Source: Fidelibacterota bacterium
GTDB taxonomy: Bacteria > Fidelibacterota > Marinisomatia > Marinisomatales > TCS55
DNA: 60,854 nt
Direction: 5' to 3'
NCBI GenBank assembly: GCA_046861385.1
Contig: JBHHTW010000010.1
Span: 1-60,854 of the forward strand
Every line of letters starts with the position of its first letter. Within the stretch, counting starts at the first letter, position 1. A program made the position numbers and the translations under genes. The notes beneath the pieces were generated by a model that had not been told where the DNA came from, made no database searches, and saw nothing but the letters and a program-made list of their open reading frames with translations. This document shows positions 5,562 through 36,492 of this stretch, piece by piece.

Positions 5562-5578
5562 CAGGAACTGGATAAAAA

Positions 5579-7696: not shown

Positions 7697-7706
7697 TTGA
7701 ATTAAA

Positions 7707-9389: not shown

Positions 9390-9390
9390 T

Positions 9391-9879
9391 ATGAGTTATA
9401 CAATAGAACAAAAATTTAGTGCTCTATGTAAAATTACCCGGGCATCTCATTTTGAATGGCGGGAGGCGTTTATAAAAATGTTTCCCAACATGGACTCAAA
9501 AGAAGCTGTTTTGAAATATTGGGAAATTGTTGGCCATGATACTGCCAAGGCATACCTAAAACGAATGGACAGTGCTAAGCCAGTCGCTCCTCAAATTGCT
9601 GAAATGATTGTCAACAGTTCGTTGGCTATGGGTGAGGATGCAGAAATGACAGAGGAAAATAGTGGGAATGTCCGGTTGGTTCATTCCGCGTGTCCTTGGT
9701 ATGACTGGCATAAAAAATATAATGCTCTTGAAGAAGACCAGCCCGGTTGTGACCGTTGGATGCAAACACTCGTGGATGATATCAATCAAAAACTTGGCAC
9801 CCATATTAAAGTCAAAACGATGAGTTCACTGCCAAACGGGAATGACAATTGCACGCGGATTTTTTCGGAGAAAAAATAA
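9391..9879 (+). CDS. Small Cys-motif protein, ATC-hydrolase/V4R-like fold, function unknown
   Basis: CPW...GCD...GNDNC pattern; translationally coupled between hydantoinase B and the acyl-CoA dehydrogenase. Confidence 0.65.
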   Translation: MSYTIEQKFSALCKITRASHFEWREAFIKMFPNMDSKEAVLKYWEIVGHDTAKAYLKRMDSAKPVAPQIAEMIVNSSLAMGEDAEMTEENSGNVRLVHSACPWYDWHKKYNALEEDQPGCDRWMQTLVDDINQKLGTHIKVKTMSSLPNGNDNCTRIFSEKK

Positions 9880-11006
9880 TGAATTTTTCATTGAATAATG
9901 ACCAGGAGCTAATTCAAAAAACTTTCAGGGATTTCGTTGAAAAGGAAGTGAAGCCCCAAGCAGAATCCATTGATAAAAATAAAACATTTCCTGTTGAATT
10001 ATTCAAAAAAGTCGGAGAGCTTGGATTTTTTGGGATGCGATATCCTGAGTTGGCAGGTGGAACCAATTTAGATACACTCTCTTACTGCCTGGCAGTCATC
10101 GAACTGGCAAAGGGTTCTTTATCCCTGGCTGCAGCCTGTACCATGCAATCTTTAATGGCTACCTATTTTCTATTTAAATATGGAGATGAAGAAGTCAGAG
10201 GCTTTTTCAATCAAGCTTTGAAAGGGGAGAAAATCGGCGGCATTTGCATGACAGAACCCAATGCCGGAAGCGATCTGAATAATATCCGAACCAAAGCAAA
10301 AGTCCTGGAGGATCATTTTTTGTTGACCGGTCAGAAAACCTGGGTCACTTCCGCACCGGTTGCTGATTTTTTCACTGTATTCGCCAAAACCGATAACCAT
10401 GAAAAATTATCTATATTTTTTGTTCCCATCCGTTTAGACGGTGTCCATATTGGCAAACCAATTGAAAAGTTAGGTGTACGTGGTTCTGTGACCAGTGAAG
10501 TGGCATTTGATGAAGTAAAACTACCGAAAAATTATTTGTTGGGGGAAATAGGCGGAGGAACTGATTGTCTTAAGGATATTTTAGCTGAAATACGAATTAT
10601 GACCGCTGCTTTGGCTGTCGGTGTTGCCACAGCCGCATTTGAAGCGGCAGTTGAATATGCTAAAACCAGGAAACAGTTTGGCAGACCAATTGGAAAGTTT
10701 CAGGCTATTCGGCTCAAGATTGCAGATATGGGTGTTCAGTTGGAAACCGCCAGACAATACGTTTTTTATGCTGCTGCTTTGAGCGACCAAGATTCCCCGA
10801 TGCAGAAAGAATCGATGATAGCAAAACTTTATGCCTCTGAATGTGCCAACTCCATTTGCGATACTGCTTCCAGAATTTTCGCCTCTTACGGTTATGCCAT
10901 GGAATATCCCATACAGCGTTATTTAAGAGATGCCCGATTTACGCTCATCGGCGGAGGCACATCGGAAATACTGGGTATCAACATTGGTCGAGAATTAGGT
11001 CTGTGA
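9879..11006 (+). CDS. Acyl-CoA dehydrogenase (IaaF-like, probably decarboxylating)
   Basis: CMTEPNAGSD, GQKTWVT, RKQFGRPIGKFQAI, YGYAMEYP, IGGGTSEI; ATG at 9879 overlaps the upstream stop. Confidence 0.88.
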   Translation: MNFSLNNDQELIQKTFRDFVEKEVKPQAESIDKNKTFPVELFKKVGELGFFGMRYPELAGGTNLDTLSYCLAVIELAKGSLSLAAACTMQSLMATYFLFKYGDEEVRGFFNQALKGEKIGGICMTEPNAGSDLNNIRTKAKVLEDHFLLTGQKTWVTSAPVADFFTVFAKTDNHEKLSIFFVPIRLDGVHIGKPIEKLGVRGSVTSEVAFDEVKLPKNYLLGEIGGGTDCLKDILAEIRIMTAALAVGVATAAFEAAVEYAKTRKQFGRPIGKFQAIRLKIADMGVQLETARQYVFYAAALSDQDSPMQKESMIAKLYASECANSICDTASRIFASYGYAMEYPIQRYLRDARFTLIGGGTSEILGINIGRELGL

Positions 11007-11028
11007 ACAATTATCAACAGGAGAAATA

Positions 11029-12237
11029 ATGCAATTCAATAACGCATACATTCCTTATGGCGGCTATTGGAGTACGCCATTTTGTAAATGGCAAGGTAGC
11101 TTTGCAAATCTTCACCCTCTGAAATTTGCTGCAGATGTCGCACGGAAATCTCTGAAAAAACGCAAAATTGATATAAACGAATTTAACGCACTCCATTTGG
11201 GAAATACTGTGCCGTCAAAATCCTGTTTCTATGGAGCCCCATGGGTTGCAGGAATGATTGGTGCGGAAGGTATTACTGGACCCATGATTGGACAGGCTTG
11301 TGCCACTTCTGCCAGAGTAATCGCCGGAGCTGCTTTTGAAATCGATTCTGAAAGTGAAAACGATCAATCAATATTATGTATTACAACAGATCGGACTTCG
11401 AATGGCCCACACATTGTTTACCCTAACCCCATGGGTCCCGGAGGAAGAGGATTAACGGAAGATTGGGTTTGGGATAATTTTAACCATGACCCTTTTGCTC
11501 GTAATGCCATGCTTCAAACAGCTGAAAATGTGGCGAAAGAAGCGGGGATTACCACAGAAGAACAACACGAAATTGCTCTTTTACGCTATGAACAATATCA
11601 GGATGCATTGGCCAATGACAATGCCTTTCATAAACGGTATATGGTTTCACCGGTAAATATAAATCCGACAGGACGCAAAACCATCGGTATTGTGGAGTCC
11701 GATGAAGGTATTTTTCCCACAACGGTCGATGGGCTGAATCAATTAAAGCCTATTTTACCCGGAGGAACCGTCACCTTTGGCGGACAGACCTTCCCCGCCG
11801 ATGGAAACGCAGGCATGGTTGTAACCTCTCAAGAAAAAGCGAAAGAAATGAGTTTAAACCGAACCATTTCTATCCAGTTGGTCAGCTTTGGGCAAGGCAG
11901 GGTTAAAAAAGGATTTATGCCGGCGGCAAATGTTCCGGCGGCAAAAAAGGCCATCTCCAATACCGGGATCAATATCTCTGACATAAAGGCCATTAAAACA
12001 CATAATCCGTTCGCAGTCAACGATATTTATTTTGCCAGGGAGATGGGTGTGGATAAAAAATCGATGAATAACTATGGTTCGTCACTTATCTGGGGCCATC
12101 CTCAAGGTCCTACGGGAATGCGTCTGGTCATTGAATTGGTGGAAGAATTGGTCCTTTTGGGTGGGGGTTACGGACTCTTTACAGGATGTGCCGCCGGCGA
12201 TACAGCAGCAGCGATTATTATCAAGGTGGATTCGTGA
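11029..12237 (+). CDS. Thiolase family protein (IaaA-like)
   Basis: QACATS catalytic Cys, HNPFAVND, GHPQGPTG, GCAAGD. Confidence 0.85.
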   Translation: MQFNNAYIPYGGYWSTPFCKWQGSFANLHPLKFAADVARKSLKKRKIDINEFNALHLGNTVPSKSCFYGAPWVAGMIGAEGITGPMIGQACATSARVIAGAAFEIDSESENDQSILCITTDRTSNGPHIVYPNPMGPGGRGLTEDWVWDNFNHDPFARNAMLQTAENVAKEAGITTEEQHEIALLRYEQYQDALANDNAFHKRYMVSPVNINPTGRKTIGIVESDEGIFPTTVDGLNQLKPILPGGTVTFGGQTFPADGNAGMVVTSQEKAKEMSLNRTISIQLVSFGQGRVKKGFMPAANVPAAKKAISNTGINISDIKAIKTHNPFAVNDIYFAREMGVDKKSMNNYGSSLIWGHPQGPTGMRLVIELVEELVLLGGGYGLFTGCAAGDTAAAIIIKVDS

Positions 12238-12267
12238 TAACAATTGAAGAAATGAAAAAATATATTA

Positions 12268-12299
12268 AACTTTGCGGGAGTTTGAAACTTCCGCAAAGT
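12268..12299. repeat. REP-like palindrome, dispersed copy of the RAYT-flanking repeat
   Basis: aactttgcgggagtttgaaacttccgcaaagt closely matches 37771-37802 and 38441-38471; intergenic. Confidence 0.85.
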
Positions 12300-12316
12300 G
12301 ATGAAAAATAAATCTA

Positions 12317-12715
12317 ATGAAAGTATTATTAGCAAAACCGGGACTGGACGGACATGATGTGGGCGTAAAAGTGCTGGCCCACGGAATTAAAGAAGCAGGA
12401 TTTACAGTGGTTTATTCCGGATTGAGAAAATCCATTGAAAATATTGTACAAAAAGCAATCGATGTCAAAGCGGATGTGATTGGTCTTTCAATTCTTTCCG
12501 GTACCCACTTGATCCTTTGCAGGAAAATGAAAGAAGTGATGGATGAAAAAGGAATAACCATTCCCTGGCTGGTGGGAGGCAATATTCCACACGGAGATGT
12601 AAAGCCGCTGTTAGGACTCGGAGCCATCGCCGCTTTTCCCACAGGAACCAAAGTGGATGGTGTGGTAAATTATTTAAAAAAACTGGATCATCAGCCCCAT
12701 GGAAAGATTAAATAA
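12317..12715 (+). CDS. Cobalamin-binding small subunit of acyl-CoA mutase (IaaG/H-like)
   Basis: KPGLDGHDVG (DxHxxG), IGLSILSG, VGG motifs. Confidence 0.9.
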   Translation: MKVLLAKPGLDGHDVGVKVLAHGIKEAGFTVVYSGLRKSIENIVQKAIDVKADVIGLSILSGTHLILCRKMKEVMDEKGITIPWLVGGNIPHGDVKPLLGLGAIAAFPTGTKVDGVVNYLKKLDHQPHGKIK

Positions 12716-12717
12716 CG

Positions 12718-14304
12718 ATGACTGATAAAAAAGTATTTCTGGAATCCGGGATTGAAGTAAAACCTCTCTATACCCAGGAAGATATTAAAGTTTCTGAAGC
12801 AAGTAAGAATATGCCCGGGCAATATCCTTTCACCCGGGGAATTCATCCGGGAATGTACCGGACCCGTCCATTCACCATTAGACAGTATGCCGGTTTTGCT
12901 TCTCCCGAAAAAACCAACGAACGGTTTAAGTTTTTAATTGAGAATGGTCAGACGGGATTAAATGTTGCATTTGATTTACCTACTCAATGCGGTCTCGATT
13001 CAGATGATCCCAGCTCTCTTGGAGAGGTGGGACGGGTAGGAATGGCCGTAGATACTCTCGATGATTTTGAGATTGCTTTTCAGGGGATTGATTTGGATAA
13101 AATTACCGTTTCCCTGACGATCAACGGTTCTGCCATTGTTCTCATGGCCATGTATTTTGCTTTGGCAGAAAAACGAGGTTACGACATCAATAAGCTAAGG
13201 GGTACAGCTCAGAATGATATTCTAAAGGAATTTATCGGTCGTGGTACCTGGATTTTTCCTGTCGATACTTCTGTTAAATTGGTAGTGGATACTGTTGAAT
13301 ATTGTGCACATCATGTTCCCAAATACAGCCCGGTCAGTATTTGCGGATACCATATCAGAGAATCAGGCGCCAACCCGATTCAGGAAATGGCCTATGCATT
13401 TTGTATCGCGAAAGCTTATACCGATGAAACATTAAAACGGGGAATTTCTATCGATGAATTCGCATCCCGACTTTCATTCAATTTCGATATTTATGGTAAT
13501 CTCTTTGAACAGATTGCCAAATTTCGTGGCGGGCGCCGTCTCTGGGCAAAAATTATCAGGGAGGGATATCATGCGAAAAATGATAAATCTTCCTGGCTAC
13601 GCATGATAGCAGGTGGTGGCGGCGGAGGGCTGACCAAAGAACAGCCGGAGAATAATATTATCCGCAGCGCATATTACGCGTTGATCAGCGCCCTTTCCGG
13701 AACCCAAACCATGGCTCTTTGTTCTTATGATGAAGCATATACAATTCCCACGGAAAAAGCTGCAGAACTTTCATTAAGAACCATGCAAATATTGATTCAT
13801 GAAATGGGAATTTGTGATACGGTGGATCCTTTGGGTGGCTCATATTACGTTGAAACGCTGACAGATCGGTTTGAAAAAGAGATTCAGGAAGAAATGAAAC
13901 TGGTAGACGAAATGGGCGGCATCATTGAATCTGTGGCCTCCGGAAAAATTCAGGAAAAAGTGTCTCAGCAGGCTTATGAACGGGAAACTGGAATTCAAAA
14001 CGGAACCATCCCAAAAGTTGGAGTAAATATTTTTCAAAAAGATGAAGATCCTAAACCTGTGGCATTTCATCCCTACAACGAAAAAGCGGCGAACGATCAA
14101 ATTGAAAAACTAAAACGAATCAAAGCGGATCGAAATGGAGAAAAAGTCCACTCTGCACTTGATGAACTAAAGAAAGATTGTTTACAAAATATAAATCTAA
14201 TGCCGGCAGTTATTGAAGCAGTTAAAGCCTATGCTACCGTCGGAGAAATTATCGGCGTTATGAAAGATGTTTATGGAGAATATGATGAACCAATTTTCTT
14301 TTAA
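12718..14304 (+). CDS. B12-dependent acyl-CoA mutase large subunit (methylmalonyl-CoA mutase family, IaaG/H-like)
   Basis: PGQYPFTRG, RQYAGF, AFDLPTQ, QNDILKEF, GYHIRE, DPLGGSYYVE; unusual IAGGGGGG segment. Confidence 0.9.
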   Translation: MTDKKVFLESGIEVKPLYTQEDIKVSEASKNMPGQYPFTRGIHPGMYRTRPFTIRQYAGFASPEKTNERFKFLIENGQTGLNVAFDLPTQCGLDSDDPSSLGEVGRVGMAVDTLDDFEIAFQGIDLDKITVSLTINGSAIVLMAMYFALAEKRGYDINKLRGTAQNDILKEFIGRGTWIFPVDTSVKLVVDTVEYCAHHVPKYSPVSICGYHIRESGANPIQEMAYAFCIAKAYTDETLKRGISIDEFASRLSFNFDIYGNLFEQIAKFRGGRRLWAKIIREGYHAKNDKSSWLRMIAGGGGGGLTKEQPENNIIRSAYYALISALSGTQTMALCSYDEAYTIPTEKAAELSLRTMQILIHEMGICDTVDPLGGSYYVETLTDRFEKEIQEEMKLVDEMGGIIESVASGKIQEKVSQQAYERETGIQNGTIPKVGVNIFQKDEDPKPVAFHPYNEKAANDQIEKLKRIKADRNGEKVHSALDELKKDCLQNINLMPAVIEAVKAYATVGEIIGVMKDVYGEYDEPIFF

Positions 14305-14373
14305 TTTTATGATGGTTCATTTTTTACCATTTATTTTAACCTGCAAGTATTGTAATAATTGAATCTTATTGAG

Positions 14374-14392
14374 TAGTATCACAATAGTATCA
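14374..14392 (+). promoter_or_regulatory. Candidate HicB operator (direct repeat TAGTATCA x2)
   Basis: TAGTATCA at 14374-14381 and 14385-14392 just upstream of hicA. Confidence 0.3.
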
Positions 14393-14398
14393 TAAATT

Positions 14399-14605
14399 AT
14401 GCCAAGGAAAATCCGGGAATTAATCAAAGAATTAAAAAAAGCAGGGTTTGTCGATCGGGGCGGAAGAGGCAGTCATCGGAATTTCAAACATAAGAATGGT
14501 GCCATTCTAACCATTTCTGGGAAATTGGGTTCGGATGCAAAACCATATCAGGAAAAATATGTTAAAATGAAAATTAGAGAATCAAAATATGAAAGAAAGC
14601 GATAG
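14399..14605 (+). CDS. hicA: HicA-family mRNA interferase toxin
   Basis: 68 aa basic protein with GFVDRGGRGSHRNFKH motif, overlapping a HicB-like gene. Confidence 0.85.
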   Translation: MPRKIRELIKELKKAGFVDRGGRGSHRNFKHKNGAILTISGKLGSDAKPYQEKYVKMKIRESKYERKR

Positions 14606-14918
14606 ATATTTAAAAATTGTTGAATGGTCTGAAGAAGACCAAAGTTACGTAGGGTCTGTACCCGGTTGGATAGGTCCCTGTTGCCATGGAAGCGATGAAG
14701 AAAAAGTCTATAAGGAATTATGCCGGATAGTAGATGAATGGATTGAGATCTACAAGGATGATAACCAAAAACTTCCACCACCCACAAACAAGCATTACTC
14801 AGGAAAATTCATTTTAAGAACAGGATCAGAAATGCATAAAGCATTGGCTGTTCGCGCAGTTTCTGAAGGGGAAAGCCTGAATAAATATGTAGTTAAGAAA
14901 TTAAAATCAATACTTTGA
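14589..14918 (+). CDS. hicB: HicB-family antitoxin (C-terminal RHH)
   Basis: WSEEDQSYVGSVP...HG N-domain; YSGKFILR...HKALAVRA...SLNKYV ribbon-helix-helix. Confidence 0.85.
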   Translation: MKESDRYLKIVEWSEEDQSYVGSVPGWIGPCCHGSDEEKVYKELCRIVDEWIEIYKDDNQKLPPPTNKHYSGKFILRTGSEMHKALAVRAVSEGESLNKYVVKKLKSIL

Positions 14919-15026
14919 TTCCTCTTGGTTCTGACCTTGTAATTATAATGACATCTCTTTTAGACAGATATAATATTTATACTGAAGGTAAAAAGTGATG
15001 AATAAAAAATTCTACGGGTTGAACTG

Positions 15027-15305
15027 ATGAAAAAAGAAATTATTAAATCGCTGACAAATGAGTTTAAATCTTATGTCAAATTTACAAATCAGGGCGTTGA
15101 GTTCTGGTTTGCCCGGGATTTACAGCATCTGCTGGGATATACCGAATGGCGGAATTTTAAAAAAGTAATTAATAAAGCAAAGACCGCCTGTGAGACGGTT
15201 GGTTACTTAATAATCGATCGTTATGTTGATACCAGCAAAACAATTTTCGATAGTCGAACCAGAGACTCATTTAGATTTAAAAGCGATATTTTTCGAGATG
15301 GCTAA
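15027..15305 (+). pseudogene. N-terminal fragment of DinD/BRO-like DNA-damage-inducible protein
   Basis: EFWFARDLQHLLGYTEWRNFKKVINKAKTAC is the DinD N-terminus; similarity ends near 15245 and the ORF runs out of frame into the next gene; far shorter than a full DinD. Confidence 0.7.
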
Positions 15306-16503
15306 ACAGAAAACAATTATAAGCCTCGAGCAGGCCCTAACTCTCCCTTATGCTACGCAACGGTTTGTCCAATTAGGTTGGCGGGTCATTCGAATAGAAT
15401 CTCCCGGTAAACCGGGGCAAAAAACCTCCGGAGATCCAAATCGATATATTGGTGAAGATACGGGAGAGGAAGATTTGCATGCCTATTACATCGCTCCGAA
15501 TGTGGGGAAAGAAGCAATCACAATTAACCTTCAGAAACCTGAAGGTCAAGCATTGCTAAAACGAATTATTCAAGAATTGAACGTCGATGTTTTTCTATGC
15601 AATACACTTCCGAAAAGATATAAACAGCTTGGGATTGATTACAATTTGTTGAATGAAGCAAACCCGTCTCTCATTTGGTGCGGCATTTCTGCATTGGGGC
15701 CTGATTATCCGGATCGTGCTGGATATGACCCGGCGTTGCAGGCAATGTTTGGCTACATGTCTCTTACCGGAGAGCCTGATCGTGACCCTATGTTATGCGG
15801 TTTGCCGATCATTGATTTGAAAGCCGGCGATGAAGCTTTTACTCAGGTCATCCTTGCCATGATGGAAAAGCAGGAAACAGGAAAAGGGAAACGGATTGAT
15901 ATTGCCATGGCTCAATGCGCCTCATCATGGTTAATAACCGCCCTGCCTCAACTGGAGTTTGTAGAAGATGAAGCAGATCTATTTACCCGGAGCGCAAATG
16001 AACATCGCAGTTTCGTACCATCCAATTGTTACCCGACAAAAGATGGATATGTGTATCTGGCCATCGGCAGCGATTCACAATGGGAAAAGCTAACAAAGAT
16101 CAATAGGTTTGACCACCTTACTGCAGACATTCGCCTTACTAATAATGGACGGAAAGCAGACAGAGAAAATATTTATCACGATATAAGAAAAGGTCTGGAG
16201 ACGTATACAACAAATGATTTTATAGATATTTGCCTGGAAAACAATTTGGCAGTAGCGCCGGTGAATACGGTTAAAGATGTTGCTCGTCTCGATTTAATCA
16301 AAAAAATAATGATAAAAACAACACTGCCTAACGGAATAAAAGCTAACCTGTTTCCTGCTCCGATGAATACTGAATATTTAGCAACAAAGAAGAATACACT
16401 TCCATGCGCCCCAAAACTGGGGGAACATAATTTATCCGTATTATCCGAAATTGGTCTTACGAATTCCGAAATTTCAAATTTAAATAGTAAAGGTATAATT
16501 TAA
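15223..16503 (+). CDS. Family III (CaiB/BaiF) CoA transferase (IaaL-like); start uncertain (15223 or 15298)
   Basis: VIRIESP, GDPNR, NVGKEAITINL, AGYDPALQAMFG, DLKAG, PSNCYPTKDG, APKLGEHN. Confidence 0.85.
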   Translation: MLIPAKQFSIVEPETHLDLKAIFFEMAKQKTIISLEQALTLPYATQRFVQLGWRVIRIESPGKPGQKTSGDPNRYIGEDTGEEDLHAYYIAPNVGKEAITINLQKPEGQALLKRIIQELNVDVFLCNTLPKRYKQLGIDYNLLNEANPSLIWCGISALGPDYPDRAGYDPALQAMFGYMSLTGEPDRDPMLCGLPIIDLKAGDEAFTQVILAMMEKQETGKGKRIDIAMAQCASSWLITALPQLEFVEDEADLFTRSANEHRSFVPSNCYPTKDGYVYLAIGSDSQWEKLTKINRFDHLTADIRLTNNGRKADRENIYHDIRKGLETYTTNDFIDICLENNLAVAPVNTVKDVARLDLIKKIMIKTTLPNGIKANLFPAPMNTEYLATKKNTLPCAPKLGEHNLSVLSEIGLTNSEISNLNSKGII

Positions 16504-16507
16504 CCAA

Positions 16508-19045
16508 ATGATGAAAGACAAAATTGAAGCACAAATAAAAGCGCCCGCCAACAGCCCATATATTTTGCAAGGCAATGCTGCTTTTGCATTGGGTGTTATC
16601 CATGCCGGTTACCATGCGGCAACGGGTTACGCAGGAACTCCCAGCACAGAAGTAATTGATAAAACACTGGCTTTTGCACAGGATTCCATGAAAGTCGGCT
16701 GGTCGGTAAATGAAGCGGTTGCAGTGTCAACAGGCGTTGGTCATGCCATTGCCGGATTTGACTCTTTAGTGACCATGAAAATTCCTGGTGTTTTTCAAGC
16801 GGCTGATGCTATTACAACCTCCGCATTTTTTAGTGGAAAGTCAGGAGCCCTTGTGATTTTCGCCGCAACAGATTATGCGCCTTCCAGCACCCAGCACGTG
16901 ATTGATCCACGATACTTTTTTGCATCAACACGGCTCCCTGTATTACAGCCACGCAACCATCAGGAAATGTATGATATTGCTCGAACGGCTGCAGATATGA
17001 GTAGAAATTATCATACGCCTGTGATTGTTCTGGCTTCTGGGATTCTTTCACATTCAGAGGCATTGATACGGACGAAGGAGTCCAGGATAATCGAACCAAT
17101 GGAATTGCCTGACACGCTCCACGAATGGATGCTTTTACCCAGTATCGCCAGAAAAAACTATAATAAAGCCACCCAAAAACGTATTCCTTCAATTCAGGTT
17201 TGGGCTGAAACGTCAGAACTCATTACCGAAACAACCGGAAAAGATGAATGGGGTATCATTGTCTGCGGAAATACGGAAGGGACTGTTCGGGAAGTTTTAA
17301 GCAGTTTGAATCTCGACCCATCCATTCTATCCATTGGAATTACAAATCCAATTCCCAAAAAACGTATCGGTCAGTTTGCTGAAAAAATTTCAAATAACAT
17401 TTTTGTAATTGAGGATGGCGATCGATATTTAGAAGAGAAAATTCGTCTTATGGGAATAGAGGCTATTGGTAAAAATGAGGGTAGCGTTTTAACTCTGTGG
17501 ACCCCTGAAGACGTGATTCAACTTTTATCAAAACAACTGGACTTACCTCCAATCCAAAAACCAAATACAATTGAATTGGAACCATTACCCAGGCCTCCCT
17601 CCATTTGTCCAGGGTGTTCTTATAAAGCATTCGCCTTATCCGTCGCCAAATTGAAAAAAAGAAAAAAGATTTATGCAGCCTTTGGCGATATAGGTTGTTC
17701 TACACTATTATTTTATAATAACGCATTGGATACTGTTTCATGCATGGGAGCATCCGATTCTATGCGGCAGGGCTTTGTATTATCAAGGCCGGAAATGGCT
17801 CATAAAGTAATTAGTGTGATTGGGGATTCAACAGAATGTCATTCAGGATTAGATGGAACTCGGAATGCAATTTTTCGAAATATACCTGGGGTAAAAGTTA
17901 TATTGGACAACTATAGCACCGCCATGACCGGCGGACAGCCATCGCCCAGTTCCAAGGCAAATTTAGAAGGCCGTCCAAACAATTTCAGCCTAAAGGAGGC
18001 TGTGGAAGCTGAAGGGGGACGTACAATCGTCGTGGATGCGTTTGATGTTAAAGGTGTTGATAATTCATTAAAAAAAGCACTGAAATTGGCTGAGGAAAAA
18101 ATATATACAACTCTAATTCTCGAAGGGGACTGCATCCACGATGTGGAGAGAAACAAATTGGAGCGCAATCTTGAATTCAATTATGATAATTGTAAGAATT
18201 GTGATTTATGCAACATTTGTCCAGGGATTGAAACAGATGATTCAAAGACACCCCATTTTACAAGCATGTGTTCAAACTGTTCTTCGAATAACCAAGTTTG
18301 TGTTCAGCGCTGCCCCTTTGATGCAATTTCTATTATTGCCGACAATGGAAAAAGTGAAAATGATTTTCAACATATTGACATACCCAAATTCACCGAACCT
18401 GTGGAAATTGATAAAAATAAACTACCGGAATCATTGAAAATTGCTATCAGGGGAATTGGCGGTCAGGGGAATATATTCTTTGGCAAAGTTTTATCCGAAG
18501 TGGCATTACGCACTCCTTATGCTGACGCCCACATTATTAAAGGAGATACGTTGGGAATGGCAAGGCTTGGCGGATCAGTTATCTCTACATTCAGCTGCGG
18601 GAATGCATACTCTCCCATCCTGGCGCCAAATTCTGCCGACGTATTAGTGGTTATGGAAGCGAGCGAAGTTCTCCGCCCCCGGTTTTTGGAATTGTTAAAA
18701 CCCAACGGATCCATCATTATGAACGAATATTCCGCTTTACCAATTAATGCTCATAAAGAAGAATATCCGGATATTGAATCTATTCGAAAAGTGTTGGATG
18801 GCTATAAGATAATAAGCGTCGACGCGAACCAAATTGCGATAGATATGAACGACAAGAGGGCCATGACTGCCAATGTAATTATTGTTGGATTACTATCAAC
18901 AATTGAACCGTTTAATCATATTCCCAGCGAAATCTGGCAAGCAGCCATATTGGAATTGTCTCCAAATAATTTGATCAAATCCATGAACCTAACAGCATAT
19001 AGCAAAGGGAGAAATTGGATTAATAAACAAACGGTTGCACTTTAA
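16508..19045 (+). CDS. iorAB: Indolepyruvate:ferredoxin oxidoreductase, fused alpha+beta (IorA-IorB)
   Basis: GNAAFALG, YAGTPSTE, NEAVA, RPPSICPGC, GDIGC, GDSTECHSG...DNYSTAMTGGQ (TPP), CxxCxxC ferredoxin, then IorB-like GIGGQG and GMARLGGSV. Confidence 0.85.
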   Translation: MMKDKIEAQIKAPANSPYILQGNAAFALGVIHAGYHAATGYAGTPSTEVIDKTLAFAQDSMKVGWSVNEAVAVSTGVGHAIAGFDSLVTMKIPGVFQAADAITTSAFFSGKSGALVIFAATDYAPSSTQHVIDPRYFFASTRLPVLQPRNHQEMYDIARTAADMSRNYHTPVIVLASGILSHSEALIRTKESRIIEPMELPDTLHEWMLLPSIARKNYNKATQKRIPSIQVWAETSELITETTGKDEWGIIVCGNTEGTVREVLSSLNLDPSILSIGITNPIPKKRIGQFAEKISNNIFVIEDGDRYLEEKIRLMGIEAIGKNEGSVLTLWTPEDVIQLLSKQLDLPPIQKPNTIELEPLPRPPSICPGCSYKAFALSVAKLKKRKKIYAAFGDIGCSTLLFYNNALDTVSCMGASDSMRQGFVLSRPEMAHKVISVIGDSTECHSGLDGTRNAIFRNIPGVKVILDNYSTAMTGGQPSPSSKANLEGRPNNFSLKEAVEAEGGRTIVVDAFDVKGVDNSLKKALKLAEEKIYTTLILEGDCIHDVERNKLERNLEFNYDNCKNCDLCNICPGIETDDSKTPHFTSMCSNCSSNNQVCVQRCPFDAISIIADNGKSENDFQHIDIPKFTEPVEIDKNKLPESLKIAIRGIGGQGNIFFGKVLSEVALRTPYADAHIIKGDTLGMARLGGSVISTFSCGNAYSPILAPNSADVLVVMEASEVLRPRFLELLKPNGSIIMNEYSALPINAHKEEYPDIESIRKVLDGYKIISVDANQIAIDMNDKRAMTANVIIVGLLSTIEPFNHIPSEIWQAAILELSPNNLIKSMNLTAYSKGRNWINKQTVAL

Positions 19046-19054
19046 TTAGTCATT

Positions 19055-19534
19055 ATGCAAACTGCTGACAACAAAATATCTTTTACTATTAACGGGAGAA
19101 AAGTGGAGCAAACCATTTCCTCCTCCATGCTCCTTATCGATTTTATTCGAGATGAACTGAAACTAAAAGGTACAAAACCAGGCTGCCTCGGCGGGGAGTG
19201 CGGTGCTTGTACGGTATTGGTTGACGGCATGGCGGTTAATTCTTGTCTCTATCTTGCCATAAACGCTGATGGAAAATCCGTTACTACCGTTGAAGGTCTT
19301 TCCTCTGGTAATGCATCTTTAGATATGGTTCAGCAATCCATGGTGGATCATGGAGCTGTCCAATGCGGATTTTGCACCCCCGGGATAGTCATGGCCATTA
19401 AATCATATAAAAATCAATGTGACCAGAATAATCATAAACCAGGCCGGGAAGAAATAAAGAAAAGTCTGGAAGGGAATATATGCCGCTGCACCGGTTATGT
19501 TAAAATTATTGATGCTGTTGAGGCGTTGTTCTAA
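19055..19534 (+). CDS. Xanthine-dehydrogenase-family 2Fe-2S subunit (IaaIJK-like complex)
   Basis: GCLGGECGACTV, QCGFCTPG, GNICRCTGY. Confidence 0.9.
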   Translation: MQTADNKISFTINGRKVEQTISSSMLLIDFIRDELKLKGTKPGCLGGECGACTVLVDGMAVNSCLYLAINADGKSVTTVEGLSSGNASLDMVQQSMVDHGAVQCGFCTPGIVMAIKSYKNQCDQNNHKPGREEIKKSLEGNICRCTGYVKIIDAVEALF

Positions 19535-19536
19535 AC

Positions 19537-21843
19537 ATGAATCAGGATAAAAAATTTACCGTTATCGGCAAACGCATTCCCAAAATCGACGCCAGAGACC
19601 GGGTCACAGGTAAATCGGTTTTTGGATATGATCTAGAATTACCGGGGATGCTCCACGGGGCTATTTTACATTCAAAATATCCTTCAGCAATTATTAAGTC
19701 CATCGATACTTCAAAAGCGAAGAAACTCGCTGGTGTTGAATGTATCATCACAGCAGACGATGTTGACACCAATAATCTCAACTATCTCCAGGATCATCCT
19801 GTTTTAAAAAATGAGGAAGTGAATTGTATTCGTGACGAAGTCGCTGCCGTGGCGGCTGTATCAAAAGAAATCGCCATGAAAGCACTGGAATTAATCGAAG
19901 TGACCTACGTTGAACGGAAAGGTGTTTTTGATCCTTTCGATGCGCTGAAAGATGATGCTCCTAAAATCAATAAATTCGGAAAGGGAAATACACGTCATCA
20001 AAATATTTCTGAATCATTTCATTATGAACACGGAGATTTAGAAAAAGAAAAGAAAAGAAGTACCTGTATTATCACCCGGCAATATGTTCTTCCAAAAGTG
20101 TCCCCCACATGCTTGTCTCCCAGTAGTATTACTGCAAGTTATTCTGTTGAAAACGATATCCTGACACTTCACAGTTCCACCCAGGTGCCCTTTTTATATC
20201 AAAGGGAAATATCTCACGTGCTTAAAATGGATCCGTCCAAAATCCGGGTGATTCAACCCATTATTGGTGGCGGATTTGGAACAAAACTGGATATCCATCC
20301 TTTTGAACCGATTTGCGCTCTTTTATCGATGAAAACCGGTAAACCGGTTCAAGTTTTATTTAGCAGAGAGGAAGAATTTCACCATTCTGCCATCCGGCAA
20401 TCCATGGTCATTGACTTAACAACCGGCGCAGACAAAAACGGACGATTTACTTTCAGGGAAGTAAAAGTGACCAAAGATAACGGAGCCTATACTTCCTGGG
20501 GAGCCAAAACTTCCTTTGTGATTATGCAGACATTTTCATCGTTATATCAGGTGCCCGCCTGCGTATACCATGCCGATGCCGTTTATACCAATAATGTTTT
20601 TGCCGGGTCAATCAGAGGGTTTGGTAATCCACAAGCGACCTTTGCCCTGGAAAGGAATATTGACTTAATGGCCGAAGAATTGGGAATGGACCGGACTGAA
20701 ATTCGATTAATAAACGCGAATTTTCCTGGAGAAATTTCTGGACAGGGTCTTGAATATCACTCTTGTGGTCACAAACCTGCCCTGGAAACAGTTATTAAAC
20801 AAAGCGGTTATTTGAATATACATCAGCAAAATGATTCAGGCAGATATAAAAGAGGGATTGGTTTTGCTTCCATGCTGCATGTGGGGGGTGGCGCCAAGAT
20901 TTACCGGTCTGACGGTTGTGGAACGACACTCAAACTAGACCCATATGGCTACCTGACCATTATTACAGGATCAAGTGAAATCGGACAAGGTTCGGAAACA
21001 GTATTGGCCATGATAGCAGCAGAAGAGTTGGGAATAGAATTAAATAAGATAAAAGTCATCAATACAGATACAAATGTGAAACCCTGGGATGTGGGTGTTC
21101 ATGCATCCAGAACCAGCTTTGTGGCCGGGAATTCAATATTGGGAGCCTTGAAAAAATTAAAAGAGAAACTGTTGAAAAAAGCGTCTCAGCTCCTAAATAC
21201 AACAAGCGATGATTTGGTATTTGAATCGGGCGAGATTAAATCGATAAAAACAAGTGATTCATTAAAGATTGATAAAATTGTTAGAGAGCTGCATTTTAAA
21301 CCTCCTCATGAATTATGTGAGGTTTCATATTTTTACGAACCGTCCAGTCAATTTCAAGATAAGAATTTCAAGGGTAATGTATCCGGCTGTTATGCGTTTG
21401 CTGCTCAGGCGGTGGAAGTTGAAGTGGATACATTAACCGGAAAAGTAGAAGTATTGCATGTACATGTGGGTCAGGATGTTGGGAAAGTCCTAAACCCCTT
21501 GGGGCTTGAAGGTCAGATAGAAGGTGGTGTTGTCATGGGGATGGGTTACGCTTTGACTGAAGAAATGATTTATAAAAACGGATATTTGCAAAATACTACT
21601 TTTCACGATTATAAGGTTCCGACTCCGCGAGACATCCCGGAGATTCATTTTTATCCGATTGAGACACATGAGAAAACGGGCCCCTATGGCGCGAAAGGCA
21701 TGGCAGAGGCTCCTCTGGTTCCGACTCCTGCGGCTATTGCAAATGCTGTATCTAATGTGTTGGGCGTTGAACTTAATTCACTCCCAATCACTCCAGAAAA
21801 AGTACTGAAAGCCATTTACGAAAAACAGTCTGGAAATAATTAA
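19537..21843 (+). CDS. Xanthine-dehydrogenase-family molybdopterin subunit (candidate indoleacetate 2-hydroxylase)
   Basis: STQ, IGGGFG, GSIRGFGNPQ, EIGQGSET, HASRT, QIEGG, GAKGMAE motifs. Confidence 0.88.
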   Translation: MNQDKKFTVIGKRIPKIDARDRVTGKSVFGYDLELPGMLHGAILHSKYPSAIIKSIDTSKAKKLAGVECIITADDVDTNNLNYLQDHPVLKNEEVNCIRDEVAAVAAVSKEIAMKALELIEVTYVERKGVFDPFDALKDDAPKINKFGKGNTRHQNISESFHYEHGDLEKEKKRSTCIITRQYVLPKVSPTCLSPSSITASYSVENDILTLHSSTQVPFLYQREISHVLKMDPSKIRVIQPIIGGGFGTKLDIHPFEPICALLSMKTGKPVQVLFSREEEFHHSAIRQSMVIDLTTGADKNGRFTFREVKVTKDNGAYTSWGAKTSFVIMQTFSSLYQVPACVYHADAVYTNNVFAGSIRGFGNPQATFALERNIDLMAEELGMDRTEIRLINANFPGEISGQGLEYHSCGHKPALETVIKQSGYLNIHQQNDSGRYKRGIGFASMLHVGGGAKIYRSDGCGTTLKLDPYGYLTIITGSSEIGQGSETVLAMIAAEELGIELNKIKVINTDTNVKPWDVGVHASRTSFVAGNSILGALKKLKEKLLKKASQLLNTTSDDLVFESGEIKSIKTSDSLKIDKIVRELHFKPPHELCEVSYFYEPSSQFQDKNFKGNVSGCYAFAAQAVEVEVDTLTGKVEVLHVHVGQDVGKVLNPLGLEGQIEGGVVMGMGYALTEEMIYKNGYLQNTTFHDYKVPTPRDIPEIHFYPIETHEKTGPYGAKGMAEAPLVPTPAAIANAVSNVLGVELNSLPITPEKVLKAIYEKQSGNN

Positions 21844-21846
21844 ACA

Positions 21847-22710
21847 ATGAATTTTCAAACGATTAGCCCACAAACCACTGATGAACTTTTAGAAATGATC
21901 AGACAGAATCAGGGAAAACATTTCAGGTTCGGTGCCGGATACACGGATTTGTTACCAGAACTACAATCAGAGATGGAAGATGGTTTAACCGTTATCAATC
22001 TTGCAAAATTAAAAGATGATTATTTTATATCAATCAATCTTTCGGAAGATGGAATCAGAATTGGCGCACTGACAACAATGTCCGACGTATTATCCAGTAA
22101 ACACCTCCAAAAATTCCCTGTCTTAATTGAAGCGGTTGAAAGTCTGGCATCTACCCAGATCAGGTCTGTAGCCACCGTTGGGGGGAATTTATGTACTGCT
22201 TCCCCGGCCGGAGATGTCTCTTGCGCTTTGATGGCTCTAAACACATCATGTGAAATATTGGACACAGATGGACAAATTAGAACCGTGCCGCTTACTCAAT
22301 TTTTTACCGGTGTGAAAACAACCACATTGAAAACGAATGAAATACTACGAGGCGTTTTAATTCCTCGTCAAGATTCTGGAAATAAAATTATTTCCGGATT
22401 TATCAAAATTGGAAACCGTAACTCTATGGAGATAGCGCTGGTTTCCCTAGCATATCATATAATGGTAGATAGAAATGGCGTTATTACAAAAGCTGGAGCA
22501 GCTGTGGGTTCTGTTGCAGAAACAATCAAATATACAGAATTGGCCTGTGAATTTTTATTGGGGAAAAAAATGGATCGATTGTCTGAAAAGGATAAACAAA
22601 CATTTGCTGATCATGTTTTGGAATATACAAATCCCATTTCTGATATCCGTGCATCTGCATGGTATCGTCGCAAGGTTCTATGGAATGTAACCAAAAGTAT
22701 TCTGGAATAA
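21847..22710 (+). CDS. Xanthine-dehydrogenase-family FAD subunit
   Basis: AGYTDL, QIRSVATVGGNLCTASPAGD, PISDIRASAWYR. Confidence 0.88.
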   Translation: MNFQTISPQTTDELLEMIRQNQGKHFRFGAGYTDLLPELQSEMEDGLTVINLAKLKDDYFISINLSEDGIRIGALTTMSDVLSSKHLQKFPVLIEAVESLASTQIRSVATVGGNLCTASPAGDVSCALMALNTSCEILDTDGQIRTVPLTQFFTGVKTTTLKTNEILRGVLIPRQDSGNKIISGFIKIGNRNSMEIALVSLAYHIMVDRNGVITKAGAAVGSVAETIKYTELACEFLLGKKMDRLSEKDKQTFADHVLEYTNPISDIRASAWYRRKVLWNVTKSILE

Positions 22711-22783: not shown

Positions 22784-24145
22784 TTATACTGTGGGCAATC
22801 CTTCCAGCGCTTTCAGGTTTTCGGTGACTTCTTCATCCGTCATGGCGTGGTCTTCGAGATTACCAGCAAGGAAATTGGAATAGGCGGACATGTCAAAGTA
22901 TCCATGACCTGATAGGTTAAACAGGATGACTTTTTCTTCTCCGGCTTCCCGAGCTTCGATTGCATGTTTCACAGCTCCATGAACTGCATGGCTGGATTCC
23001 GGTGCAGGAACAATTCCTTCGGTTTTTGCAAAGGTAATTGCCGATTCGAAACAATCGACTTGACCATACGCTTCTGCTTCAATTAACCCATCCTTTACCA
23101 ACTGGGATAAAAGGGGAGAATCGCCATGATATCTCAGCCCACCAGCGTGAATGGGTGGAGGTACAAATCCGTGTCCCAGTGTATACATAGGCGACAATGG
23201 TGTTAACTGTGCAGTATCGCCAAAATCATACCGGAATTCACCCTTGGTCAGGGTCGGACACGATGCCGGTTCAGTTGCAACAAAACGCGTATCTTTTCCA
23301 TTGATTTTGTCTCTCAAGAATGGGAATGCTAATCCGGCATAATTGGATCCGCCGCCGCAGCAACCAATAATAATATCGGGATATTCGCCGGCAATTTCCA
23401 TTTGTTTCATTGCTTCCTGTCCCACAACCGTTTGATGGAGGAGAACGTGGTTTAACACAGAACCGAGAGCATACCGGGTATCATCTCTCGTGGCTGCATC
23501 TTCAACTGCTTCGGATATTGCAATACCGAGACTACCTGGAGTGTCCGGCATTTTTTCTAGAATGGCTCTTCCGGCATTGGTGTCTGGTGAAGGACTGGCT
23601 ACGATCTGTGCTCCGTATGTTTCCATCAGTGCTTTACGGTACGGTTTCTGATCAAAACTGATCCGGACCATATATACTTTGACTTCCTGTCCAAACAGGT
23701 TCCCGGCAAAGGCCAGTGAACTTCCCCATTGTCCAGCACCCGTTTCAGTGGCAAGGCGCATAACGCCCTCTGCTTTATTAAAATATGCTTGAGCTACAGC
23801 GGAATTCGGCTTATGACTTCCGGTCGGACTGACACCTTCATATTTATAATATATTTTGGCAGGTGTATTTAATGCTTTTTCCAACCCGGTTGCGCGAATC
23901 AAAGGAGACGGTCTCCAAATTCTCAATGCCTCCAAGACCGGTTCCGGTATATCAACAAATCGATCCTGACACACTTCTTGAAGAATTAACCCCATAGGAA
24001 ATAAGGGGGCCAAATCATCAGGTCCGATGGGTTGACCGGTTCCTGGATGAAGAATCGGAGGTGGTTGGTTCGGCATGTCTGCTACAATATTATACCATTG
24101 TTTCGGTATATCTTGTTCAGATAATACAATTTTCTTTTGATTCAT
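22784..24145 (-). CDS. trpB2: Tryptophan synthase beta chain, type 2 (stand-alone TrpB2)
   Basis: [22 protein letters not shown] (PLP Lys), [34 protein letters not shown]; start at 24145 has AAAGGAAG RBS; no trpA nearby. Confidence 0.92.
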
Positions 24146-24389
24146 GTGACTTCCTTTCAGAGTAGTGGGAGGAGGATTACTATTAAAAAACCGGCGAGCC
24201 GATTTAAGAGTACGAGATATGAAATTGCCATTCATATTAAAAGAATATCCCGACATGAGGATACAATAATCAAGTATTTTTTTATTTAATGTGTTTTAGT
24301 AAAATGCCGTTGCGTTCCAGTCGTTATTACTTAAATAATACATGGTGCAGACAATCCACTAATTATAATCAAAAGAAAGACTAATCTAA

Positions 24390-25409
24390 ATGTTGAAGAA
24401 TAATATCAATACTGTTCGTCTAATGTCTAATGAGAATCCATTTGGTCCTTCGCCGAAAGCTCTAGAGGCAATTAATAAATACAGTAAAGACATTCATTGC
24501 TATCCAGGATGGTATCCTAAAAAATTAAAAGCAAAACTTGCATCAAAATACCAAGTATCTCCGGAAAATATTGCTGTCTCTGCAGGGTCCTATGAACTCA
24601 TAAATCTTATTACCCGGTTTTTAGTTGCGGGTGATGAGGAGATCCTTACCTTTGATAATACATTTATGGCTTATAGTTACAGTGCAAAGCGTAATGGAAG
24701 AAAATGTGTTATCGCAAATATGTCCGGCTTTGACTGCGATTTGAATGATCTCGTTCCCCTTTGCGGAAAGAAAACAAGGGTCATATTTATTGCCAATCCA
24801 AATAATCCGACAGGAACCATTGTTACTGCTAGTTCACTAAAAAAACTATTAAAAACGATATCCACTGATATTTTGGTTGTTGTAGATGAAGCCTATTTTG
24901 AGTATGTCTCTGATGAATCGTATCCAGACACTGTTTCACTCCAAAAAGAATTCCCAAACTTAATAACCCTCCGTACCTTTTCAAAAATATATGGATTAGC
25001 CGGAATCCGAATCGGATATGGAATAGCCAATGAGAAACTGGTTAAAATACTCGAAGGCAACCGACTTTTGCGCTCTATAAACTATTTAGCTGAAAAAGCA
25101 GCTGAAGCAGCAATAGATGATTTCGATTTTATAAACCAATCAGCAAAATATAATGAACTAGAACGTACTAATTTACAGAAAGAATTAACACAGCTTGGAT
25201 TTAATGTAATACCCTCACATGCAAATTTTTTATACCTGCCTTTTGAGAATAATGATAAAAAGAATAATGTATATGCACAATTAGCCGATCACGGGTTAAA
25301 GGTTTGTGATTTAGCAATTTTTGGACATGAAAAAGCTTTGCGAATCACTGTTGGAAAAAATGATGCCAATATTCGCATCATTAATTGTCTCGCTCAGATA
25401 AAAGAATAA
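24390..25409 (+). CDS. HisC-like class II PLP aminotransferase (candidate aromatic amino acid aminotransferase)
   Basis: SNENPFGPSP, NPNNPTG, DEAY, RTFSKIYGLAGIRIGY, LRITVG; a second paralog sits in the his operon. Confidence 0.85.
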   Translation: MLKNNINTVRLMSNENPFGPSPKALEAINKYSKDIHCYPGWYPKKLKAKLASKYQVSPENIAVSAGSYELINLITRFLVAGDEEILTFDNTFMAYSYSAKRNGRKCVIANMSGFDCDLNDLVPLCGKKTRVIFIANPNNPTGTIVTASSLKKLLKTISTDILVVVDEAYFEYVSDESYPDTVSLQKEFPNLITLRTFSKIYGLAGIRIGYGIANEKLVKILEGNRLLRSINYLAEKAAEAAIDDFDFINQSAKYNELERTNLQKELTQLGFNVIPSHANFLYLPFENNDKKNNVYAQLADHGLKVCDLAIFGHEKALRITVGKNDANIRIINCLAQIKE

Positions 25410-25859: not shown

Positions 25860-26315
25860 ATGAATATGAGTTATGATAACCCAGCGGGAACCATGGAAAA
25901 AACGACTGGATTTCTAATGTTTAGAACGGCAAGGGGAATGAAAAAATTGCTGGATACCCGATTGAGCGAATTCAACATCACCTCCTCCCAGGCAACGGTG
26001 TTAAATACCCTAAGTTATCAGGACGGCCAATCTCTGTCGGATATTGGGAAAAGTATTCACCTTGATAAACCGGCCATCACCGGTTTGGCTGACAGAATGG
26101 AAAAAGATGGATTGGTTGAACGGCGGCGAACATCTTCAGATCGAAGAATCATTCAGCTCTTTTTTACAGAAAAAGGAAAAAAACTCTTTCATCAGATCGA
26201 AAAGGTTATTGTGGACGTCGATAATGAACTGGTGGAAGCACTTAGGGAAAAAGAAATCGAATCGCTGCATTCAATGCTGCAACGAATATGGAATAAATCA
26301 AACGGACAACCATAA
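25860..26315 (+). CDS. MarR family transcriptional regulator
   Basis: ITSSQATVL, LDKPAITGLADRMEKDGLVERR, DRR, TEKG winged-helix motifs. Confidence 0.92.
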   Translation: MNMSYDNPAGTMEKTTGFLMFRTARGMKKLLDTRLSEFNITSSQATVLNTLSYQDGQSLSDIGKSIHLDKPAITGLADRMEKDGLVERRRTSSDRRIIQLFFTEKGKKLFHQIEKVIVDVDNELVEALREKEIESLHSMLQRIWNKSNGQP

Positions 26316-27524: not shown

Positions 27525-27532
27525 GGTAGATA

Positions 27533-28831: not shown

Positions 28832-28832
28832 T

Positions 28833-30705: not shown

Positions 30706-30748
30706 TTCATGAATTGACAGGGACTTTTTATGAACAGGAGTTGGCTCC

Positions 30749-32467: not shown

Positions 32468-32470
32468 GAA

Positions 32471-35399: not shown

Positions 35400-35426
35400 G
35401 AAATATTTTTTCAGGAGTTTTCAGGA

Positions 35427-36485: not shown

Positions 36486-36492
36486 ATTTTGA

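Follow-up and report, generated by a model that had tools for sequence, protein, structure and literature searches.

A fused IorA-IorB oxidoreductase as a candidate entry enzyme of an iaa-type anaerobic pathway in a Marinimicrobia-type bacterium

A single-chain 2-oxoacid:ferredoxin oxidoreductase of the indolepyruvate:ferredoxin oxidoreductase (IOR) type is encoded within a cluster of iaa-type genes, the genes of anaerobic indoleacetate degradation, on contig JBHHTW010000010.1 of a Fidelibacterota bacterium (assembly GCA_046861385.1; positions 1 to 60,854, this whole stretch of 60,854 nucleotides being the window below). Somewhat better than even odds, a probability of roughly 0.55, can be given to the interpretation that tryptophan is the real substrate of an iaa-type anaerobic pathway entered through this fused IOR, which makes indoleacetyl-coenzyme A (CoA) and so stands in for the ligase IaaB. 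The window (contig C73) belongs to a genome of 2.43 Mb that is 97.9% complete, and the database relatives of its proteins are labeled Candidatus Marinimicrobia or Neomarinimicrobiota. Domain assignments come from Pfam and NCBIfam profiles compared with the open reading frames (ORFs) of the window, with curated cut-offs; L-numbers denote loci or contigs of relatives, and C68 is another contig of the same genome.

The fused oxidoreductase and the iaa-type cluster

The two adjoining genes on which the interpretation turns are the following.

15298-16503, + strand: family III CoA-transferase, IaaL-like by position (PF02515, 226 bits; located after the mutase in relatives)
16508-19045, + strand: fused IorA-IorB 2-oxoacid:ferredoxin oxidoreductase, 845 aa (Pfam, NCBIfam, homologs, cysteines)

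The preliminary description of this DNA had reported a single IorA-IorB chain of 845 aa starting 4 nt after the CoA-transferase, and this is borne out: the ORF 16508-19045 is uninterrupted over 845 codons, and the stop codon of the transferase (TAA, 16501-16503) is followed by CCAA and then by the ATG of the IOR gene at 16508. The longest ORF of the transferase begins at 15223; the likelier start is 15298 (MAKQK...), since the Pfam match begins at residue 5 of the protein read from there and at residue 30 of the longer version, and since relatives are approximately 401-406 aa long. The spacing along the transferase, IOR, 2Fe-2S, molybdenum cofactor (MoCo) and FAD subunit genes is 4, 9, 2 and 3 nt.

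The protein contains the POR_N (residues 29-198), TPP_enzyme_C (394-526) and POR gamma domains, the last of which represents the IorB portion (PF01558, residues 651-835, 73.6 bits with a cut-off of 27.4). Against NCBIfam, residues 19-607 cover positions 4-595 of the 595 positions of IOR_alpha and residues 644-835 match IOR_beta; the second-best type of model for the IorA part reaches only about 105 bits. Among the best database matches listed, 119 of 120 homologs, distributed over several candidate phyla, are 830-858 aa long (61-100% identity), which indicates that the IorA-IorB fusion is natural and not an artifact of assembly. Fourteen cysteines (367, 370, 397, 412, 542, 562, 565, 568, 571, 588, 591, 598, 602 and 697) are invariant in all 29 distinct fused sequences compared; these include two ferredoxin-type groups, 562-571 and 588-602, and are presumably ligands of iron-sulfur clusters. 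The domain content and the cofactor ligands thus point to a complete IOR-type enzyme, the sole IOR detected in the genome. Enzymes of this family convert arylpyruvates to arylacetyl-CoA, and indolepyruvate to indoleacetyl-CoA; the predicted activity of the fused protein is such an oxidative decarboxylation of indolepyruvate or other arylpyruvates.

The remaining genes of the cluster are these.

3528-5561, + strand: 3-hydroxyacyl-CoA dehydrogenase/enoyl-CoA hydratase fusion (Pfam 3HCDH_N, 3HCDH and ECH_1; syntenic in relatives)
5579-7696 and 7707-9389, + strand: hydantoinase A-like and hydantoinase B-like proteins (Pfam Hydantoinase_A/B)
9391-9879, + strand: small ATC_hydrolase-like ORF (weak PF14196 match, 25.8 bits with a cut-off of 28.1)
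9849-11006, likely start 9879, + strand: IaaF-type acyl-CoA dehydrogenase, benzylmalonyl-CoA dehydrogenase-like (GGG motif)
11029-12237, + strand: thiolase (Pfam Thiolase_N/C)
12317-12715 and 12718-14304, + strand: B12 mutase, B12-binding small subunit and methylmalonyl-CoA-mutase-like large subunit (Pfam)
19055-19534, 19537-21843 and 21847-22710, + strand: xanthine-dehydrogenase-family molybdenum (Mo) hydroxylase, 2Fe-2S, MoCo and FAD subunits (Fer2_2, MoCoBD_1/2, FAD_binding_5)

The acyl-CoA dehydrogenase carries the motif LIGGGTSEI, with GGG in the YEG position (residues 366-368 of the 385-aa ORF), and the GGG triplet is invariant in five of five aligned IaaF-like orthologs. According to the passages of PMC8360864 on this enzyme, GGG distinguishes the IaaF (benzylmalonyl-CoA dehydrogenase) subclass, whose genes are invariably part of indoleacetate clusters. 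It is this motif that identifies the cluster, on sequence grounds, as truly iaa-type. The same cluster unites the two-subunit B12 mutase (MM_CoA_mutase, 632.6 bits; TIGR00640 and TIGR00641 both exceed their cut-offs), the family III CoA-transferase, the hydantoinase A/B-like pair and the xanthine-dehydrogenase-family Mo enzyme. Together with the IaaF-type dehydrogenase, the dehydrogenase/hydratase fusion and the thiolase, these are shared, at the level of family matches, with the iaa operon of Aromatoleum aromaticum and Azoarcus evansii. The best NCBIfam models for the hydantoinase-like pair are those of caprolactamase (CapA, 657 bits, and CapB, 391 bits, both below the cut-off of 1000), so that the pair is probably a caprolactamase-like, ATP-dependent lactam hydrolase involved in ring opening; the dehydrogenase/hydratase fusion would participate in the beta-oxidation of 2-aminocinnamoyl-CoA. 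The small ATC_hydrolase-like ORF is kept in Marinimicrobia-type relatives (63-80% identity).

The window operon differs from the Aromatoleum one in lacking an IaaB-type ligase and a binding protein and in containing the IOR-type gene between the transferase and the Mo enzyme. As the preliminary description had claimed, neither a ligase of the AMP-binding or PaaK type nor a solute-binding protein was identified with Pfam and NCBIfam in the ORFs of 3528-22710, and no solute-binding or transporter family of the IaaM type was found among the window ORFs scanned. The cluster differs further in its flanks, which comprise an aminotransferase, a TrpB2 and Bcr-type genes, and in its host, an uncultured Marinimicrobia-type bacterium.

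Conservation of the oxidoreductase position

Two sets of loci were compared. The first consists of 21 loci retrieved via the fused IOR; the second was retrieved by alignment of the IaaF-like protein, independently of the IOR, from the best 80 of 344 relatives, and its counts refer to the 23 loci that contain the transferase with at least 1.5 kb downstream (near-duplicates in this set are L030/L035 and L037/L038, and L028 repeats L001). An IOR-type gene directly follows the transferase in 21 of these 23 loci. The fused IOR takes this place in 14, at gaps of 8-165 nt; in seven it is held by a different IorA fusion (1120-1141 aa) with IorB as a distinct gene behind it (L042, L050, L073, L074, L083, L095 and L098; 13543-17512 in L074). 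This alternative IorA, fused to a GltD/NfnB-like module of Fer4_20, Pyr_redox_2 and Fer4 domains, scores 588.3 bits on IOR_alpha (in L074) and is 26-28% identical to the window protein; its architecture suggests an NAD(P)-linked indolepyruvate oxidoreductase. In the remaining two loci, the next gene encodes the small subunit of the Mo enzyme (L046) or an aminotransferase (L103). A third architecture is found after the thiolase in L052 (13415-16878), where a 752-aa protein joins a PorC-like gamma domain to a GltD-like module and is accompanied by a PorA-like alpha subunit; the contig ends before any beta subunit gene is reached.

Among the 21 loci retrieved via the IOR, 10 have the transferase directly upstream and iaa-type genes (L001-L007, L009, L012 and L015), seven have ample flanks and no iaa-type genes (L010, L011, L016, L017, L018, L020 and L021), and four are too short or only partial. 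Overall, the fused IOR is located directly after the transferase in 24 loci. The iaa-type HydB was not found in the genomes of the seven non-iaa loci nor in that of L013, in a search in which two positive controls matched. The neighbors of the fused IOR in the non-iaa loci are genes of amino acid catabolism. In L011, the IOR gene is immediately followed by that of a tryptophanase (TnaA, 834.6 bits with a cut-off of 750), and RidA, TetR regulator and glutamate dehydrogenase genes come next. L010 encodes a beta-eliminating lyase together with an aminotransferase, L017 encodes RidA, and peptidases and flavodoxin are found in L018 and L021. In a quick maximum-likelihood tree, with the root on a very long outgroup branch and no direction of evolution drawn, the seven non-iaa fused IORs group in a single clade (SH-aLRT 99), separate from the 21 rows linked to clusters. 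Of 151 phylum members sampled, only two genomes, both of one genus, contain the fused IOR (at least 81% identity), and these are also the only two with the iaa-type HydB (at least 90%); the other HydB matches are paralogs at 30-31% identity. This context supports the view that the iaa-like cluster contains an IOR-type enzyme as a conserved and integral component.

A route from tryptophan and its alternatives

The genes downstream of the cluster bear on the substrate and on several of the alternatives considered below.

22784-24256, - strand: TrpB2-type, TrpB-like pyridoxal phosphate enzyme (NF009057, 738 bits with a cut-off of 366)
24390-25409, + strand: HisC-family aminotransferase paralog, candidate tryptophan/aromatic aminotransferase (TIGR01141, 299 bits)
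25860-26315, + strand: MarR-family regulator (Pfam MarR)
26358-30445, + strand: BcrCBAD-like class I benzoyl-CoA reductase-type genes (two HGD-D and two BcrAD_BadFG domains)
30749-32467, 32471-33670, 33671-34645 and 34638-35399, + strand: FadD-like AMP-forming ligase, HGD-D protein, ApbA/PanE-like reductase and activase

In the favored route, tryptophan would be converted to indole-3-pyruvate by the adjacent HisC-family aminotransferase, with TrpB2 possibly adding indole and serine to the tryptophan pool, and the fused IOR would produce indoleacetyl-CoA along with CO2 and reduced ferredoxin. Acting at the thioester level, the Mo hydroxylase and the hydantoinase-like lactam hydrolase would then yield (2-aminophenyl)succinyl-CoA, on which the family III transferase would move CoA from one carboxyl to the other. 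Next, the B12 mutase would form (2-aminobenzyl)malonyl-CoA, the IaaF-type dehydrogenase 2-aminocinnamoyl-CoA, and beta-oxidation would deliver 2-aminobenzoyl-CoA to the neighboring Bcr-type genes. Neither an ATP-consuming ligase nor an auxin uptake system would be required, and the reduced ferredoxin would be a plausible bonus for the ring reductase. An IOR in place of IaaB is the simplest reading because the product that such enzymes make from indolepyruvate is the first thioester of the Aromatoleum pathway. The passages of PMC8360864 on Aromatoleum describe IaaB as activating indoleacetate to indoleacetyl-CoA in the first step; IaaL is described there as transferring CoA intramolecularly in phenylsuccinyl-CoA and as capable of exchange with succinate/succinyl-CoA as well. 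By chemical reasoning, a thioester derived from the side-chain carboxyl should end up distal to the aryl-bearing carbon, and the mutase-type rearrangement to benzylmalonyl-CoA needs the other carboxyl; this mismatch in the position of CoA would therefore leave the intramolecular transferase essential, next to the IOR.

The preliminary description had also named tryptophan, in place of auxin, as the true substrate. Gene context supports this as the likelier physiological substrate without amounting to proof, given the HisC-like aminotransferase and TrpB2 beside or inside the clusters, the lack of a binding protein, and the tryptophanase beside non-iaa fused IORs. The HisC paralog, which shares only 31% identity with the HisC encoded in the window's his operon (50856-51908), and TrpB2 are both syntenic in L001, L002 and L004. 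A HisC-like gene immediately follows the IOR in L013, and the aminotransferase found after the transferase in L103 is of a different class. In L040 (8189-9532), L041 and L088, TrpB2 belongs to the operon itself and is encoded on the + strand, with HydB and the IaaF-like gene on either side. TrpB2 may draw indole into the pathway via tryptophan.

A number of observations weigh against the entry role proposed here. The fused protein scores far under the curated cut-offs of both NCBIfam models (362.2 vs 650.9 bits for IOR_alpha and 94.6 vs 205.8 for IOR_beta), which marks it as a divergent member of the IOR branch of 2-oxoacid oxidoreductases; NCBI names its relatives merely '2-oxoacid:acceptor oxidoreductase family protein', a search of PDB sequences with the fused protein gave weak matches to other oxidoreductase subunits and no close solved structure, and both activity and substrate are predictions. 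The IaaF-fetched loci are close relatives of the window cluster (54-90% IaaF identity) and not classical Aromatoleum-type clusters. Free indoleacetate (IAA) is said to be hydroxylated by cell extracts (Ebenau-Jehle 2012), which fits a route at the thioester level less well.

Candidate ligases also belong on this side of the balance. The only PaaK-family gene of the genome (224 bits with a cut-off of 646) is located on contig C68, where it is the last gene of a run (9014-18108, L024) that includes an IclR regulator, phenylphosphate-synthase-like genes, phenylphosphate carboxylase beta (475.4 with a cut-off of 468.95), UPF0261, PAC_bac and UbiX; the Marinimicrobia-type genome thus has a carboxylation cluster of the phenol type. 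Because it closes this phenylphosphate synthase/carboxylase-type run, this ligase is more likely a hydroxybenzoate ligase. Its orthologs (76-82% identity) lie approximately 1 kb upstream of the iaa-type genes in six contigs (L030, L031, L032, L034, L035 and L065), separated from them by a single HAD hydrolase and with the same neighbors on the UbiX side as on C68 where scanned (L030 and L034); this ligase may also activate IAA. Four of the six extend far enough, and all four also carry the fused IOR; ligase and IOR are therefore not mutually exclusive in this lineage, and the anticorrelation between them for which the preliminary description had suggested a survey fails among the nearest relatives. 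The FadD-like ligase (572 aa, 30749-32467), located 8 kb downstream of the cluster, is another candidate, with orthologs in 6 of the 10 genomes tested and a homolog of 48% identity retained in L070. Among 10 other genomes with the cluster and the fused IOR, the PaaK family gave no match at E 1e-10 in five and a weak partial match in one, and no ortholog of the FadD-like ligase was found at E 1e-40 in four; in metagenome-assembled genomes whose completeness is not established, such absences are weak evidence. The earlier proposal that the IOR replaces the ligase accordingly stands only in part, and not as a strict replacement: the conserved slot and the several genomes with neither type of ligase speak for it, and the PaaK-like ligase beside IOR-containing clusters and the FadD-like ligase of the window speak against it.

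Among the alternatives, one that appears unlikely places the oxidoreductase later in the pathway. The Mo hydroxylase and the hydantoinase-like enzyme would act on free indolepyruvate to give a 4-(2-aminophenyl)-2-oxoglutarate, which the oxidoreductase, in the manner of a 2-oxoglutarate:ferredoxin oxidoreductase, would convert directly to (2-aminophenyl)succinyl-CoA, to be isomerized by the transferase for the mutase. The IOR gene does adjoin that of the transferase handling an arylsuccinyl-CoA, the three unrelated oxidoreductase architectures, one of them PorA/PorC-like, do not imply strict specificity for arylpyruvates, and the fused enzyme is a divergent IOR under curated cut-offs. By chemical reasoning, the same regio-isomer would arise as in the route via IAA-CoA, so that the transferase would still be needed; the hydroxylation of the free acid reported for extracts points the same way. 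However, the nearest non-iaa fused IORs occur in contexts of amino acid catabolism, beside tryptophanase and aminotransferases, the Mo and hydantoinase-like enzymes would need substrates unlike those assumed for their Aromatoleum counterparts, and no such intermediate has been proposed in the literature examined. A bolder form of this scheme, in which the enzyme is an 'aryl-2-oxoglutarate' oxidoreductase instead of an indolepyruvate enzyme, the intermediates are free acids until that step, the invention was made at least three times with unrelated oxidoreductases, and the pathway, through TrpB2, also provides the missing anaerobic indole route, is more doubtful still.

Equally improbable is the possibility that the protein oxidizes aromatic or branched-chain 2-oxoacids in general, or reduces ferredoxin as a helper of the Bcr-type reductase, and contributes no step to the pathway, IAA being activated by a ligase. 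As the sole IOR-type enzyme encoded in the genome, it may also serve phenylalanine and tyrosine, the Bcr-type genes are only 3.6 kb downstream, candidate ligases are present, and fused IORs occur in the seven genomes in which no iaa-type HydB was found. What argues against such a role is that the IOR has a fixed place between the transferase and the Mo hydroxylase across lineages and not beside bcr genes, that the phylum sample shows it exclusively together with the iaa-type cluster, that several genomes with the cluster show neither type of ligase, and that the NAD(P)H-linked versions of the sister clusters would not serve a ferredoxin-dependent reductase. The last point also qualifies the earlier suggestion that the IOR supplies low-potential electrons to ring reductases: this fits the architecture of the window and the nearby Bcr-type genes, and it is not a conserved feature, given that a GltD-like NAD(P)H module is part of two of the architectures found in sister clusters.

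The poorest prospects are those of the CoA-recycling loop of the preliminary description, in which IOR-made IAA-CoA would donate CoA to (2-aminophenyl)succinate via the transferase and the freed IAA would be the substrate of the Mo hydroxylase: the 4-nt gap places the two genes translationally close, family III transferases do catalyze intermolecular transfers, and exchange of IaaL with succinate is reported (PMC8360864), yet the text on IaaL in the same source names only the intramolecular transfer and the succinate/succinyl-CoA exchange, its passages name no such donor, IAA-CoA is placed on the main path, and the loop adds a step with no explanatory gain over the direct route. That a free-IAA substrate would agree with the extract data reported in 2012 is a further point for the loop; the donor role as such found no support in the literature examined.

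Neighboring genes, related systems and implications

The operon is split in the window, between the mutase and the transferase, by an insertion of approximately 1 kb that consists of the following genes.

14399-14605, + strand: HicA (PF07927, 42.1 bits)
14589-14918, + strand: HicB (PF05534)
15027-15305, + strand: truncated Bro-N ORF (PF02498, 27.5 bits; match to profile positions 5-47 of 96)

This insertion is absent in L001/L028, where the mutase abuts the transferase. Across loci, the junction is an insertion hot spot. In L002 (3307-8786) it holds a type III restriction-modification island of 5.5 kb that includes a Bro-N protein, and in L009 (4344-5105) a DNA methylase. An old-yellow-enzyme-type flavoprotein (Oxidored_FMN and Pyr_redox_2, approximately 675 aa) and a 2x[4Fe-4S] ferredoxin are encoded at this place in L009, L056, L067 and L094, with an additional glyoxalase-fold protein in L067 and L094; L063 has the ferredoxin alone. 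A scan of 14200-16600 revealed fewer promoter-like sites than in shuffled sequences and terminator-like sites on the minus strand only. No RNA dataset is among the read sets listed for 12718-21843, and the four DNA sets represent one hydrothermal-vent sample, possibly the origin of this DNA. Comparison of the IaaF-like protein with plasmids by tblastn returned just generic acyl-CoA dehydrogenases of at most 42% identity.

Downstream, the genes of 26358-44941 together make up a full anaerobic benzoyl-CoA toolkit, judging from their family matches. The region includes the BcrCBAD-like genes, for which the best NCBIfam models are benz_CoA_red C, B, A and D, each under its cut-off; Had (436.5 vs 338.65) and Oah (559 vs 464.45), which exceed theirs; a Dch-like protein, an SDR protein and a thiolase; and a second Mo enzyme whose best match is 4-hydroxybenzoyl-CoA reductase (836.9, under the cut-off of 994.55). 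An IS200-like transposase (Y1_Tnp, 37821-38384) lies between the Oah-like and Dch-like genes. In the position after the Bcr-type genes where a ferredoxin might be expected, orf87 (30442-30705) has no family match. The iaa-type genes of L039, L040, L041, L070 and L088 are immediately preceded by the trio of HGD, ApbA and activase genes, and in L071 the activase alone is found at the edge; in L040, an ATP-grasp_5 (ADP-forming synthetase-like) ORF takes the position of the ligase. The module of the FadD-like ligase, HGD-D, ApbA and activase proteins perhaps serves an aryl-lactyl-CoA dehydratase route or the processing of 2-aminobenzoyl-CoA.

Compared with the two-subunit IorAB enzymes of anaerobic archaea and bacteria (TIGR03336 and TIGR03334), the window enzyme shares the alignment over full-length IorA and IorB, the thiamine pyrophosphate domain, the cysteine sets and the gamma domain. 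It differs in being one polypeptide, in scoring well under the curated cut-offs, and in belonging to an aromatic-ring degradation cluster and not to a fermentation context, with no acyl-CoA synthetase partner seen adjacent. A 2-oxoacid oxidoreductase accompanied by anaerobic aromatic genes and yielding reduced ferredoxin is also known from Thauera aromatica. This enzyme, the 2-oxoglutarate:ferredoxin oxidoreductase KorAB, whose genes accompany bcr, has a helper role and regenerates the electron donor; the window enzyme, by contrast, is of the IOR type and fixed inside the genes of a peripheral pathway. For Ferroglobus placidus, an archaeon whose IOR genes are reportedly separate, a route from tryptophan via an aminotransferase and IOR to the aryl-CoA, and then via iaa-like genes to 2-aminobenzoyl-CoA, has reportedly been predicted (Aklujkar et al. 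2014), and priority over this idea is uncertain. The open full-text literature searched contained no paper linking IOR to iaa-type clusters. Four points seem to be new, none of them having been found in that literature, namely the single-chain IOR family, its fixed slot between the transferase and the Mo enzyme across lineages, the three unrelated oxidoreductase architectures, and the travelling TrpB2.

The anaerobic indoleacetate pathway has so far been treated as auxin degradation with an ATP-consuming ligase at its start. Combined with an oxidoreductase and an aminotransferase, the same core genes are widespread in uncultured anaerobes of marine, lake and vent metagenomes, among them Marinimicrobia-type and Bacteroidota-type bacteria as well as other lineages, with different oxidoreductases repeatedly recruited to the same slot, and in nature the pathway may mainly serve the complete anaerobic oxidation of protein-derived tryptophan. 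If so, activation would come free through oxidative decarboxylation, with reducing power gained and no ATP spent. The proposed route names the enzymes concretely and offers a testable reason why the CoA-transferase is needed. If it is correct, the conserved IOR most likely allows these uncultured bacteria to use tryptophan directly, without an ATP-consuming CoA ligase.

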